Virus record (IMG/VR): IMGVR_UViG_2617270945_000017
DNA from: a virus
Taxonomy: Duplodnaviria > Heunggongvirae > Uroviricota > Caudoviricetes
DNA: 6,906 nucleotides
Strand: one strand, 5' to 3'
Positions 1-6,280 of this stretch are shown here, one piece after another. The translations under genes were made by a program, and so were the position numbers. Position 1 is the stretch's first letter, and every line of letters starts with the position of its first letter. Below the pieces are notes generated by a model that made no database searches, had not been told where the DNA came from, and saw nothing but the letters and a program-made list of their open reading frames with translations.

Positions 1-1175
<1,175 letters not shown>

Positions 1176-1308
1176 CTAACCATATACTTTGGTAAAAATG
1201 ACTGTTACGGAACAGACCATAGTAATGCCTGCTATTGGCACGGAGCGGGCTGCCTGAGCGCCGTGGGGTCTGCAAACGGTAAGCATACCGATAACTATAC
1301 GCTTGGCC

Positions 1309-1728
1309 TTAGTAACTTTTGCTCCCCTCAATAAATCCGCCATCTTTTATCGGACTGCAATGTCCTTCTTCATCAATCAGTTGCTCGTCTTTCAGGTAGG
1401 TATATCGATAGATAATTGAGCCATTATCCATCTCACCATTGGTTCGTTTCATTAGGAGAGTAAAATGTAACGGGCTGTCCCTATATCGAGCTATTCCATG
1501 AATATTGGCAAGTACCTCATATTGACGCTCAGGTGATAACCCTTTAAATACATCGAGATATCCATGGAATGTTCCATAGAGTGAAGAAGTGTAGATCAGT
1601 CGCTGCTCTGGACCAGTAACTTTAAGAGTAATTTGTTCACCCGTATTACAGGTTAGCTTGGCGGGAAATGTCTCAGCCTGAGCAGAAGAAATAGTCAAGC
1701 TTAAAATTATCAGGTAGCAATATTTCAT
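1309..1728 (-). CDS. Small secreted or periplasmic hypothetical protein, about 139 aa, in a low-GC island
   Basis: ATG at 1728 gives MKYCYLIILSLTISSAQA|ETFPAK..., a typical Sec signal peptide with an AQA cleavage motif. The mature part has two Cys. The region is visibly AT-rich compared with its flanks. The Shine-Dalgarno is weak; the longer ORF in the track to 1830 would need a TTG start and would bury the signal peptide. Confidence 0.55.
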   Translation of the reverse strand: MKYCYLIILSLTISSAQAETFPAKLTCNTGEQITLKVTGPEQRLIYTSSLYGTFHGYLDVFKGLSPERQYEVLANIHGIARYRDSPLHFTLLMKRTNGEMDNGSIIYRYTYLKDEQLIDEEGHCSPIKDGGFIEGSKSY

Positions 1729-2043
1729 GTGATTAGAATGTCCAAAACTAACATGTATACTCGGGATTCTATAACTAGTTGGATGTAGACCCAAGATGTA
1801 TTGGACTATTCTTCGGTTGTAGTTGGTCAAATCATATATTTTATGTCAGCAATGTCTACTTTTGGCACATAGCAGACCAGAGACACTGGCGTAAAGCCAT
1901 GGAGGATCGGTGGGAGGAGGTAAAAATCCTCTCATGCAAAAAATACGCAAAATCGATAACAGTTGGAAATCATTCAATACTCGCACTATCGGAAGTTCAC
2001 CAGCCAGCCGCAGCACGTTCTTGCATACGACGAGCCTGCGGTT

Positions 2044-2598
2044 TCATTTATCTCCGACCGGAAACATCTTATACAGTGTCGATACACCAACATCATAGAT
2101 GATCGCTACCTTCTGGCGAGGAATTCCTGCTGCAATTAATCGTCCGGCCTGCTCCCATTGTTCTGGTGTAAGTTTGGGGCGACGTCCACCAATTCGTCCC
2201 TGTGCGCGAGCTGCTTCCAGTCCAGCTTTTGTTCGTTCAACAATCAGTTCACGCTCCATTTCAGCGAGGGCACCCATCACATGAAAGAAAAAGCGCCCCA
2301 TTGGGGTACTGGTATCAATTGAATCCGTCAGACTACGAAAGTTGATACCTCGTTCGCGCAACTCCTCCACCAGCACGACAAGATGCCGCATACTGCGCCC
2401 CAGTCGGTCCAGTTTCCAGACCACCAGCGTGTCACCTGCCGATAATGTCCTGAGCAGCTTTTTCAGTCCTGGTCTGTCGGACTTTGTACCGCTTATCTTG
2501 TCTTCAAAAATCAGCTCACATCCTGCACAGTTCAGCGCATTACGTTGTAGATCGGTATTCTGGTCATTTGTTGATACACGTACATAGCCAATAAGCAT
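2044..2598 (-). CDS. Serine recombinase, DNA invertase of the Hin/Gin/Cin/Pin family, 184 aa
   Basis: ATG at 2598 is preceded by AGGGGGA 7 nt upstream. The N-terminus MLIGYVRVSTNDQNTDLQRNAL has the catalytic-Ser motif of small serine recombinases; the protein also has GRIGGRRPKLT and a C-terminal HTH (VGVSTLYK). It resembles E. coli e14 Pin and phage Mu Gin over its whole length, from memory. The 196-aa ORF in the track starts 12 codons further upstream. Confidence 0.88.
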   Translation of the reverse strand: MLIGYVRVSTNDQNTDLQRNALNCAGCELIFEDKISGTKSDRPGLKKLLRTLSAGDTLVVWKLDRLGRSMRHLVVLVEELRERGINFRSLTDSIDTSTPMGRFFFHVMGALAEMERELIVERTKAGLEAARAQGRIGGRRPKLTPEQWEQAGRLIAAGIPRQKVAIIYDVGVSTLYKMFPVGDK

Positions 2599-2655
2599 GT
2601 TAAATCCCCCTGGTAAAAGCAGGAATGATGCCATTTGCTCGTTATTTCTGCATTT

Positions 2656-3217
2656 TCATATACGAAGGTTTTCGAGAGCCGTTTTCACCGTGCCATCCGA
2701 TTTGATATCACCAAACGGATTCTTGCGGCTTAACAGCAGAGCACGAAGCGCGGTAAGCAACTGGTCGTTTCGCCCCTTCTCCAGGCTGGCACCGGATGCC
2801 TCCACCACGCTGCAAAGCTCCTCCTGCAACATATCAAAGTAGTCATCATCCAGATCGGTGGCAGGTGTGCCGGTCTGGGGGTTACCACGGGTATAAGCCC
2901 CTGGACTCCAGTTCTTCCGCCTGGCGGGTCAGGCACAAAATCTCCCGCGGGTCGTTAGTGCCGACATAGAAATTGCGCACAGGTCTGGTTTCACGAACTG
3001 GTTGCGGTTCCGCCTCCTGCGCTCTCTCAGTCAGGCGCGGGAAATGTCTGCGTGTATCTCCTTCACAACGGTGAGCCACACGCCCACTCTGACGTAACTT
3101 GCTTGCTGACTGCAGAACGCGCTGCCGTGAGTAACCTGCAAAAGCATCCGCAATGTCTCCGGAAGTACACCCCGGATGGGCTTCAATGAATTTCTGAACT
3201 TCATTCAAAAGACTCAT
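2656..3217 (-). pseudogene. Phage early gene split by a frameshift into two fragments (2882..3217 and 2656..2928); N-terminal part looks winged-helix-like
   Basis: ATG at 3217 with GGGGGTGA upstream, 2 nt after the TGA stop of the replication gene. This frame stops at 2882..2884. The +1 frame is open from 2928 to a TGA at 2656..2658 and reads as plausible protein ([30 protein letters not shown]...[14 protein letters not shown]...) with no start codon of its own. A CCCC run at 2898..2901 sits in the overlap. Confidence 0.5.
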
Positions 3218-3219
3218 AA

Positions 3220-4110
3220 TCACCCCCTGAATCCTGCCGGGATCTGGCTGTAGTCCACATTGTCGTAACTGGCTTTGAAGTACGGGTCTTCACGTTTTTC
3301 TGTGTGCGTGCTGACGGACGGCGATAAGCGCAGGGAAAGCTCATCCCATTTTTCCCGCAACTTCGACGGGCTGAGCACGTTACGGCACCAGAACGGATCG
3401 CGGCTGACGCGGCTGTACATCTCGCAGATTTGTTTGTGAGTACGACCATCCTGCACACACATCAGGCGAATTTCGTTTGCCCAGGCTGTCCAGTTAGGTT
3501 CTTTGGGACGAACCACCTCGCCGTCACATTCGGCGGCCTGCTCGTACAGGGCGATGATTTTTTTCCAGAGCCACTGTGCGCAGGTCAAATCATCCTGCGT
3601 TCCCCACTGGCGCTTTTTAGGGCTGAATACAACCGCATCAGGATGGCGAGTTAAAAAATCCTGTTCATCCATCTGCGTGTCCGGTTGCGAAGCGTCCGGA
3701 CGAGAAGGTTTTTTATCTGATGGATCATGTTTTGATTTTACTGACGGATCCCCGCCAGATTCTGACGGGTGAAAACCCGCTTTTTTGCCAGATTTCGACG
3801 CATCAAATTTTGACGGGTCAGATTTTGATGCGTCAGATTTTGACGGGTCAGAATCTGACAGTTGAGAAAATGCCGCTGCCTGAAGCTTCGCAACGTTAAG
3901 CTGATAAACATTCGACGCATTGCGGTTATCCGGTCTTAAGTCAGATTTCGTAATTGCACCTGACGTGCATTGCTCAAGTTTTTTAGCCAGCACAAAACTG
4001 GCTTTTTTATAGCCATTGAAAACCAGCCGTAAGTAGCCAGGTGTTGAGCCAACTTTTCCGGCCAACTCGCCCTGCTGTTCTTTGGTTAAAGAGTCCCAAT
4101 ACGCTTTCAT
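3220..4110 (-). CDS. Replication-initiator-like protein with N-terminal Cro/YdaS-like HTH and an iteron-encoded repeat linker (lambda O-like architecture), about 296 aa
   Basis: ATG at 4110 with GGAGGT 9 nt upstream. The N-terminus MKAYWDSLTKEQQGELAGKVGSTPGYLRLVFNGYKKASFVLAKKLEQCTSGAITKSDLRPD resembles YdaS/Cro-type HTH proteins, including the ...LRPD ending. The middle has pentapeptide repeats (SKSDA/SKSDP/SKFDA) encoded by tandem 15-bp DNA repeats. It sits directly divergent from the repressor. The C-terminal domain was not identified. The 381-aa ORF in the track is an upstream extension. Confidence 0.7.
   Translation of the reverse strand: MKAYWDSLTKEQQGELAGKVGSTPGYLRLVFNGYKKASFVLAKKLEQCTSGAITKSDLRPDNRNASNVYQLNVAKLQAAAFSQLSDSDPSKSDASKSDPSKFDASKSGKKAGFHPSESGGDPSVKSKHDPSDKKPSRPDASQPDTQMDEQDFLTRHPDAVVFSPKKRQWGTQDDLTCAQWLWKKIIALYEQAAECDGEVVRPKEPNWTAWANEIRLMCVQDGRTHKQICEMYSRVSRDPFWCRNVLSPSKLREKWDELSLRLSPSVSTHTEKREDPYFKASYDNVDYSQIPAGFRG
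3737..3862. repeat. Iteron array, putative phage replication origin embedded in the replication gene
   Basis: 15-bp units of form TCAGATTTTGACGGG: four contiguous copies at 3803..3862 (TCAAATTTTGACGGG, TCAGATTTTGATGCG, TCAGATTTTGACGGG, TCAGAATCTGACAGT), two more at 3755..3769 and 3788..3802, and a partial copy near 3737. An AT-rich stretch lies alongside at about 3700..3745. Confidence 0.65.
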
Positions 4111-4200: not shown

Positions 4201-4875
4201 ATGAAAACAATCCATGACATCCGGCGGTCTAACGCCAGAAAACTGAGAGATGGTGTTGGCGGGAATTCTTCCTTTGCCACTATGATTGATCGCGAGCCAA
4301 CCCAGACCAGCAGGTTTATGGGAGATGGTGCTACTAAAAATATCGGTGACAGCATGGCACGACACATCGAAAAATGTTTCGACCTACCTGTCGGATGGCT
4401 CGATCAAGAACACCAGACAACGAACATCACAAAAAAACCTGATGTTTCAATCACTAATAAACAAATCACATTAGTCCCTGTCATATCATGGGTACAGGCC
4501 GGAGCATGGAAAGAAGTTGGATATTCTGAGGTTGATTTGAGCACAGCAGAAACGTATCCCTGCCCTGTACCCTGTGGGGAAATGACTTATATCTTGCGGG
4601 TGATAGGTGATTCAATGATTGATGAGTACCGCCCGGGAGACATGATTTTTGTCGATCCTGAAGTACCTGCCTGCCACGGTGACGACGTTATTGCATTGAT
4701 GCACGATACAGGTGAAACCACCTTCAAAAGGTTAATAGAAGATGGGACACAGCGTTATCTCAAAGCGTTAAACCCAAACTGGCCTGAGCCTTACATTAAG
4801 ATCAACGGTAATTGCTCTATAATTGGTACAGTGATTTTCTCAGGAAAACCAAGAAGATACAAAATCAAAGCCTAA
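4201..4875 (+). CDS. CI-like phage repressor with XRE-type HTH and LexA/S24 autopeptidase domain, 224 aa
   Basis: The C-terminal domain carries the S24 Ser-Lys dyad motifs (RVIGDSM... and ...TTFKRL) and WVQAG upstream. The N-terminus has an HTH-like ...IGDSMARHIEKCFDLPVGWLD. The gene is divergent from the Cro-like gene across the operators. There is no Shine-Dalgarno before the ATG at 4201, which fits a leaderless transcript. Confidence 0.85.
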   Translation: MKTIHDIRRSNARKLRDGVGGNSSFATMIDREPTQTSRFMGDGATKNIGDSMARHIEKCFDLPVGWLDQEHQTTNITKKPDVSITNKQITLVPVISWVQAGAWKEVGYSEVDLSTAETYPCPVPCGEMTYILRVIGDSMIDEYRPGDMIFVDPEVPACHGDDVIALMHDTGETTFKRLIEDGTQRYLKALNPNWPEPYIKINGNCSIIGTVIFSGKPRRYKIKA

Positions 4876-5479: not shown

Positions 5480-5770
5480 AACTATTTCCTTCTTGGCTAT
5501 ATGAAAACACCAAGATACCACCGAGCCTGAAGTGGTGAAAAGACAGGCACATAACAGCTAAGTATTTTCAACCAGAGAGAATCCTTAGCGTTGTGGTGAA
5601 TGCGGCTCAGCGCACGCGGGTTAAGGTTGAGGCTGACAGTCGACCTTCTGTGGATACCCACCCGCCTGGTGTGCAACCTTCGCCAGGCACCGGGAGGCAC
5701 CCGGTACCACAACTTTATGCTGTGTGTAGTCCTCGCGGTACCAGTTTGTACACTTGCTTCCGGCTGGTAT

Positions 5771-5870
5771 CGCTCTTTTTACAAAACAGAGAAGAACATC
5801 ACCGGACGACGGGCTCATAACCCAATCCATCCGGGCGGCAGTCACCGCAGGTGTTCTTCTCTGTTTTGTG
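5771..5870 (+). promoter_or_regulatory. boxA-like motif followed by a long perfect hairpin in the leader of the downstream operon
   Basis: CGCTCTTTTTACAA at 5771..5784 resembles the boxA consensus (CGCTCTTTA / TGCTCTTTAACAA). ACAAAACAGAGAAGAACA at 5781..5798 is the exact reverse complement of 5852..5869, giving an 18-bp perfect stem around a roughly 50-nt loop. It ends about 35 nt before the Shine-Dalgarno of the CDS at 5918. Confidence 0.4.
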
Positions 5871-5917
5871 GAGAAACCAACCGACCTTGCAGGGTCGATA
5901 TGATGAGGAGCAGCAAA

Positions 5918-6280
5918 ATGGCTAGCGAACGCAGTACTGATGTGCAGGCATTTATCGGGGAGCTGGACGGCGGCGTATTTGAAACCAAAATCGGCGCAGT
6001 TCTCAGTGAAGTCGCTTCCGGTGTGATGAACACGAAAACCAAAGGTAAGGTCTCACTCAACCTGGAAATCGAACCATTTGATGAGAACCGTGTGAAAATC
6101 AAACACAAACTCTCATATGTTCGCCCGACTAACCGCGGGAAAATTTCCGAAGAAGACACCACCGAAACGCCGATGTATGTCAATCGCGGTGGTCGCCTGA
6201 CTATTCTGCAGGAAGACCAGGGACAGTTACTGACTCTTGCCGGTGAACCTGACGGAAAACTCCGCGCAGCAGGTCGTTAA
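5918..6280 (+). CDS. Conserved hypothetical prophage protein, 120 aa (possibly YfdP-like, recalled from memory only)
   Basis: ATG at 5918 with GAGGAG 7 nt upstream gives MASERSTDVQAFIGELDGGVFETKIGAVLSEV... The long upstream extension of the 226-aa ORF in the track is Arg/Cys/Leu-rich and lies in the GC-rich structured region, so I treat it as non-coding. Confidence 0.7.
   Translation: MASERSTDVQAFIGELDGGVFETKIGAVLSEVASGVMNTKTKGKVSLNLEIEPFDENRVKIKHKLSYVRPTNRGKISEEDTTETPMYVNRGGRLTILQEDQGQLLTLAGEPDGKLRAAGR

Follow-up and report, generated by a model that had tools for sequence, protein, structure and literature searches.

Gene content of the locus

The window (the whole stretch of DNA that was analysed, 6,906 nucleotides, identical with JNRC01000125.1 of the draft assembly GCA_000704485.1 and referred to among the compared sequences as L024) contains a decayed e14-like prophage, of a kind that has a Mu-type tail in its intact relatives. 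Of the e14-like hallmarks, the early genes are present in rearranged form and the late genes are deleted (Table 1). Taken individually, the parts of the window are common E. coli prophage DNA, and no complete E. coli genome spans 80% or more of it. The invertase gene pin is indeed preceded on its own strand, as the first-pass annotation had remarked in calling its position atypical, by early and replication-type genes. The repressor gene ymfK is divergent from the early operon, which now reads into pin; no minus-strand terminator was predicted in 1250-3300 and no sigma-70-like promoter between the crossover site and the start of pin (promoter scan). Read-through from the early operon into pin is possible, as the prediction gave no terminator-like site between the two. 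At the other end of the window, a 226-aa open reading frame upstream of yfdP (5600-6280, plus strand) matched no family, and in its counterpart region (L001 13275-13585 and L002 7959-8276) the relatives have an annotated frameshifted hypothetical gene.

Table 1. Features of the window, with strand and main characteristics.
Feature	Position	Strand	Details
IS5-family element (ISKpn26-like)	1-1178	minus	cut by contig end; transposase 115-1107
129-aa low-GC gene	1309-1698	minus	signal peptide MKYCYLIILSLTISSAQA/E, Sec; GC ~0.39-0.41
pin	2044-2598	minus	serine DNA invertase, Fis/enhancer type, 184 aa, intact
Presumed recombinational enhancer (Fis sites)	2509-2580	minus	within 5' coding region of pin, by homology
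Solo hybrid crossover site	2653-2678	minus	pin direction CTCTCGAAAACC TT CGTATATGAAAA
stf' remnant (constant N-terminal tail-fibre part)	2656-2889	minus	234 bp, reads into crossover site
Deletion junction 1	2890-2893		TACC microhomology; PerC/YfdN-like gene joined to stf codon ~21
Truncated PerC/YfdN-family transcriptional activator	2882-3217	minus	111 aa from ATG, C-terminus replaced at junction
YmfT::O-like in-frame fusion	3220-4110	minus	296 aa; junction 2 at 3927-3928
ymfK/cohE-type LexA-family (S24) repressor	4201-4875	plus	Peptidase_S24 E 1.5e-26; ymfK in relatives

Both the low-GC gene for a secreted protein and the IS5 element previously noticed downstream of pin were confirmed. The transposase of the latter has DDE_Tnp_1 and DUF772 domains, and the element is 99.5% identical to the IS5 of L002 and occupies the same position in L003. 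No Pfam or PHROG match was obtained for the 129-aa gene, which is called in L003 (9110-9499), L007 (10901-11290), L017 and L024, is found downstream of pin in L010 as well, and occupies the cargo slot held by mcrA in the e14-like prophage of GF31 (L001). Other cargo seen in relatives includes a LEM-3-like GIY-YIG nuclease and a 432-aa or 488-aa protein; as the cargo downstream of pin differs in this way, the place can be regarded as a variable moron slot.

The pin gene and its product

On the minus strand, 2044-2634 is occupied by a 196-aa open reading frame, the final 184 aa of which form a full small serine recombinase beginning with MLIGYVRVSTNDQ; this start (MLIGYVRVS) is the same as that of Gin and of the annotated pinE in relatives, and MLIGYVRVSTNDQ, which includes the catalytic Ser9, pairs one to one with Gin. 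The invertase had been placed at 2044-2655: there is indeed such a gene here, on the minus strand, but its coding region ends at 2598, and 2599-2655 is the non-coding leader of pin.

The assignment of the product to the Hin/Gin/Pin type is borne out by the Resolvase (PF00239, E 1.6e-51) and HTH_7 (PF02796, E 1.5e-14) domains found with Pfam, by Ser9 and by the match to the Mu Gin structures 3uj3 and 4m6f (E ~9e-95, for 3uj3 8.9e-95, residues 1-181), compared with which the match to gamma-delta resolvase is much weaker (E 3e-32). Among the PHROG families, the DNA invertase phrog_125 is matched (E 9e-98). In the alignment, helix 1 of the DNA-binding domain has the same Fis-contact motif Q-x-x-R-L (...EQAGRL...) as Gin; in Hin, the residues Q151, R154 and L155 of this helix contact Fis and are conserved only in invertases (PMC3798978). 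On sequence criteria Pin is thus a member of the Hin/Gin/Cin/Pin family, at a locus that is no longer a working inversion system. A hyperactive, Fis-independent Pin was considered and rejected, as its sequence is that of the standard enzyme, with both H106 and M114 wild type (3uj3 carries V at the position of M114 of Pin, and Hin-H107Y is an activated form; PMC4817059). The recombinational enhancer is presumed to be retained within pin, where the annotated enhancer of P1 Cin (nt 19-90 of cin) aligns with 56 of 72 positions identical; this stretch is also coding, and constraint on an enhancer is inseparable from coding constraint at 2509-2580.

The exact 184-aa Pin is recorded in 1599 blocks of the assembly collection. 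Among the matches listed, in 10 of 10 places it comes after tail and baseplate genes of the Mu type and a Stf-Tfa-Tfa'-Stf' cassette, the standard invertible tail-fibre segment of many E. coli genomes, and late genes are present beside an identical pin in L003 and L005-L014. The closest view of this setting is given by E. coli AF46 (L003), in which window positions 1-2671, comprising the IS5, the 129-aa gene and pin, are matched in one piece at 99.8% and the 5' part of the tail-fibre gene matches 2662-2893 at 99.6%, with 1838 bp of segment between the two matches; in AF46 both the segment and the late region are complete. A segment flanked by two inverted pix sites beside pin is present in L003, L007, L010, L015, L016 and L019.

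A solo hybrid crossover site and a tail-fibre stump

The two sites of the relatives were compared from L003, L007, L010, L015, L016, L019 and L025. In intact relatives pixL, read in the direction of pin as CTCTCGAAAACC-TT-GGTTTGGGAGAA, lies within stf, and pixR, TTCTCCCAAACC-AA-CGTATATGAAAA, about 67 nt upstream of the start of pin. The solo site of the window is composed of the outer half of pixL, the TT core of pixL and the outer half of pixR, and the alignment places it at the same spacing from the start codon as gixR of Mu and pixR of the relatives. The first-pass annotation had described the invertase as lacking recognisable crossover sites, a description that the 26-bp site at 2653-2678 contradicts. 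In half-site scoring this was the best site-like 26-mer in the window (16/20, the runner-up having 12/20), and no second crossover site was found in the window by a consensus scan and half-site scoring of the whole contig. Searching for the consensus TTMTCNNAAACCNNGGTTTNNGAKAA with up to three mismatches gave zero matches in the window, so that even the real site was missed. Its right half (CGTATATGAAAA) is degenerate and deviates from the GGTTT consensus, which accounts both for the blank strict scan and for the palindrome that had not been seen by eye. We infer that Pin can bind this site.

The inner arms of the pix sites are the published repeats of the e14 P segment, TTGGTTTGGGAGAAGG (PMC12529663). 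Together with the setting of the identical enzyme beside standard segments in 10 of 10 of the places listed, this leaves the earlier suggestion that the enzyme acts on an undescribed target unsupported; the locus is the known e14-type Pin/pix system in a degenerate state, not a new system.

Absence of any tail-fibre segment had also been reported, and here the outcome is divided: the invertible segment and the second site are truly missing, while 2656-2889 encodes the constant N-terminal part of the fibre. This remnant of 77 aa matches the tail fiber family phrog_1396 (E 5e-33, profile positions 42-116 of 504) and is 99.6% identical to L003 12311-12542, inside a gp53-like Stf gene. The open reading frame called within it has 58 aa (2656-2832, ending ...ALENLRI-stop). 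Before an invertase is called target-less, its surroundings should be scanned, by program or by eye, for a single half-degenerate site and for a stump of a fibre gene.

Decay of the prophage

Two further deletions, each with microhomology at its junction, separate the window from its intact relatives. At junction 1 all lysis, head, tail and baseplate genes were taken out, as judged from blastn comparisons with L001 and L003 and from the junction sequences; the PerC/YfdN-like gene matches L001 yfdN (PerC family) up to the junction and belongs to the transcriptional activator family phrog_1324 (E 2e-44). At junction 2, which has TA microhomology, a stretch of about 1.19 kb that L001 possesses is gone, and with it ymfL and the beginning of the O-like gene, so that the first 61 codons of ymfT (Cro/YdaS-like) are fused to the C-terminal part of an O-like replication initiator (phrog_391, replication initiation O-like, E 2e-97; phrog_35, repressor, over residues 1-76). 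What had been taken for a frameshifted non-fibre gene upstream is in fact this in-frame YmfT::O-like deletion fusion, and the DNA directly upstream of pin is fibre DNA. The odd position of pin is explained by the decay of the prophage.

The O-like part of the fusion (3700-3900, minus strand) contains a short imperfect peptide repeat (SDSDPSKSDASKSDPSKFDASKS), and 40-nt self-matches with 85% identity and a 30-nt offset were obtained by blastn in the same region.

Relatives sharing this decay were found by means of the junction-specific 296-aa fusion protein, the exact sequence of which recurs in 10 or more contigs that come from several samples; the decayed prophage lineage is thus in circulation. 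Among them, L015 (ENA metagenome, ERZ28581214), L016 and L019 (Logan, SRR9913975 and SRR33459800) have both decay deletions and flanks 99.95-100% identical to those of the window, and retain a 1733-bp segment between pixL and pixR. The segment of L016 is 100% identical to that of L019 and L015 and lies in the opposite orientation between identical flanks. With both orientations represented among L016 and L019, the segment has been flipped within a lineage that was already defective. The earlier proposal that an invertible segment had been lost is supported: L003 and others carry the canonical segment, near-identical relatives still keep it, and the window lacks it and joins the exact outer halves of their two sites.

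This prophage is defective and without virion genes, yet its fibre segment, 100% identical in sequence, occurs in either orientation. The stf stump is without its first 20 or so codons, and the switch may make no fibre. Given a report on defence by StfE2 (PMC12529663), the switch of a defective prophage could still yield switchable chimeric products.

Distribution of the solo junction

The junction that distinguishes the window (spanning sequence CTCGAAAACCTTCGTATATG) was found only there and in L017, from the sister draft GCA_000704465.1, which differs from the window by a single mismatch, at 628 in the IS5. The two drafts have adjacent accessions and probably reflect a single event. Exact patterns of the solo junction with a TT or an AA core had no match in genome_contigs or metagenome_contigs, and the TT junction, when the left half was ignored, had none in genome_contigs, metagenome_contigs or viral_contigs. 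In a control, standard pixR was found in only 2 viral contigs, which indicates that these collections sample this phage poorly; more informative than these scans is the absence of the junction from all 5426 complete E. coli genomes. Because the scar form is rare and its flanks are almost identical to those of the segment-bearing forms, loss of the segment is the latest and a very recent step, and the intact state of pin is for this reason uninformative with regard to selection.

The first-pass annotation had considered a connection between this loss and the insertion of the IS5. AF46 combines the same IS5 and the same 129-aa gene with an intact segment and a complete late region, and the IS5 was therefore not involved in the loss.

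The junction left by the loss of the segment

As the flanks of precursor and product are 99.95-100% identical, the position of the breakpoints is known to the nucleotide. Identity with pixL runs through the TT dinucleotide (2666-2665), the breakpoint lies between 2665 and 2664, and identity with pixR begins at the next base after TT (CGTATATG...). This third deletion has zero microhomology, in contrast to the TACC and TA at the other two junctions. In the sites of serine invertases, the two strands are cut on either side of the central dinucleotide, 2 nt apart, and the breakpoints of the deletion coincide with the positions at which such an enzyme cleaves.

Taking these results together, we consider the whole to be best read, with a probability of roughly 0.8, as an ordinary e14-like Pin that was stranded by the decay of its prophage and whose segment was cut out at the crossover sites. 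In this reading, Pin is the enzyme that flipped a segment of about 1.7 kb (stf-var, tfa, tfa', stf-var') bounded by a pair of inverted 26-bp pix sites. As a consequence of two microhomology deletions, that of the ymfL/O-like region and then that from yfdN to about codon 21 of stf, the early operon came to be followed directly by the stf stump, the segment and pin, an arrangement that L015, L016 and L019 still have. In a third step, a rare Pin reaction with the sites in the wrong alignment would have excised the segment. The sites being inverted, 2-nt overhangs of TT would then face TT, and the joining of the left pixL half with the right half of pixR would yield ...AAACC-TT-CGTATA... on the top strand and, from the bottom strand, ...AAACC-AA-CGTATA...; the mismatch would later be settled by replication or repair, the version from the pixL strand (TT) being the one kept in the window.

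Provided that the deletion is real, such a rare off-pathway reaction of Pin is the probable cause, catalysis by the enzyme being suggested by where the junction lies. Wild-type invertases guard against such an outcome: in vitro, ends with mismatched core nucleotides are not ligated in the recombinant orientation (PMC4817059), and inverted sites are brought by the invertasome into the alignment that leads to inversion (PMC3798978); for both reasons the proposed excision must be very rare. For precise excision of an invertible segment, no direct precedent was found in the searchable literature. Iida and Hiestand-Nauer (1986, 1987; both cited in PMC4134206) reportedly described localized conversion of Cin crossover cores, which, as regards ligation over a mismatch, would be the closest precedent. 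Routes with matched cores, between sister chromosomes or with a second prophage, were rejected by reasoning: they cannot bring the outer halves of pixL and pixR together. Whether the hybrid site is specifically the fossil of an inverted-site excision, in which a mismatched TT/TT core was ligated and one strand later fixed, we rate as an even chance.

Alternative explanations

The alternative that survives best, though we still judge it unlikely, is that the segment was lost independently of any recombinase, for instance by replication slippage or by hairpin bypass that the 20-bp inverted repeats promoted, the coincidence with the sites being then a matter of DNA structure. The segment is in fact bordered by inverted repeats, there are short direct AAACC repeats within the sites, and the other two deletions of the same prophage are ordinary microhomology events. 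However, the specific forms of this explanation predict other junctions: slippage at the direct AAACC repeats should leave GAAAACC-AA-CGTATATG, with an AA core where the window has TT, and excision of a full hairpin stem, including TT...AA, should remove both dinucleotides, for which reasons both were rejected. The junction has no microhomology at all and would fall, in both sites, on the phosphodiesters at which the top strand is cleaved, which argues against this alternative.

Much less probable still is a new target or role for the invertase at this place, for example as a regulator of the early operon. The position of pin downstream of that operon, with no predicted terminator between them, would suit such a role, and orphan Pins can act at the level of the host, as does PinQ, whose anti-T2 defence works by inverting e14 DNA (PMC12529663). 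Against it stand the identity of the protein to the standard enzyme, the lack of a partner site in the window, and the restriction of this setting to two sister assemblies with flanks 99.95-100% like those of relatives, which leaves no time for selection.

An assembly artefact, in which a region present in two orientations was collapsed in short-read drafts, would fit a 6.9-kb draft contig whose sole counterpart belongs to a sister draft of adjacent accession number, and invertible regions often do break assemblies (the Logan contig L004 stops inside the site, at 2665), but it is scarcely credible, given that pixL and pixR in direct orientation share only AAACC (5 nt), so that the hybrid 26-mer must be present in the reads, whether assembly was by k-mer or by overlap, that the same junction occurs in two assemblies differing by one base elsewhere (window 628), and that other segment-bearing assemblies break at the repeat and do not skip past it.

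Present state of the locus and its significance

The locus now has one site, no segment and no tail left to modify, and with a single site and no partner Pin is unable to invert anything in cis. If expressed, the enzyme would, we infer, be confined to trans action on the pix-type segments of any other prophages that share the cell. Cases of this kind have been described: PinQ of the Qin prophage inverts the P segment of e14 in trans, blocking adsorption of phage T2 (PMC12529663), and a prophage of EC958 whose own invertase is truncated was flipped, apparently in trans by the enzyme of another prophage (PMC4134206).

If the hybrid site is a fossil of excision, it shows one route by which phase-variable fibre switches are lost and by which orphan Pins, such as PinQ and PinR, are left free to act in trans. 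For specialists in recombination, the scar would then be an example from nature of a rare product off the normal pathway, with a core that ought to resist ligation. More generally, orphan invertases that still flip the segments of other prophages may plausibly have arisen in this way; such behaviour has recently been linked to phage defence (PMC12529663).

Comparison with known systems

The closest known system is the Pin/P segment of e14 (pinE, stfP/tfaP/tfaE/stfE), with which the window shares the type of enzyme, annotated as pinE in its relatives, and the inner arms of the crossover sites (TTGGTTTGGGAGAAGG; PMC12529663); the repressor, early genes of the ymfT/ymfL type and Mu-type baseplate and tail genes are common to e14 and the intact relatives. 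Unlike e14, the window is without the segment and one of the sites, and a lone hybrid site remains. The prophage of its closest relatives lies near ykgR/pao and not at icd, and a 129-aa secreted-protein gene stands where the e14-like relative in GF31 has mcrA.

With the Gin/G system of Mu, the similarity extends over the protein (E 9e-95, 181 residues), Ser9 and the distance from site to start, which is that of gixR; in systems of the Mu and e14 type, about 67 nt separate the site from the gene downstream of it, whose direction of reading leads away from the segment. In Mu a 3-kb segment is enclosed by two gix sites, whereas the window has a single site, the pin-proximal outer half of which (CGTATATGAAAA) departs from the GGTTT consensus. 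The cin gene of the P1 Cin/C segment has 75% nucleotide identity to pin and its annotated enhancer aligns at 56 of 72 positions, but in P1 (L022 1255-1285) cixL overlaps the 3' end of cin, which reads toward the segment, while the site of the window lies upstream of pin.

In its present condition, the locus resembles the orphans PinQ (Qin) and PinR (Rac), which are likewise serine invertases of defective prophages with no working segment of their own. PinQ is 38% identical to PinE (PMC12529663), whereas the protein of the window is of the PinE/Gin type. Action in trans is documented for PinQ and is here a candidate property; what sets the window apart from both orphans is that it still shows a readable scar of the loss of its segment.
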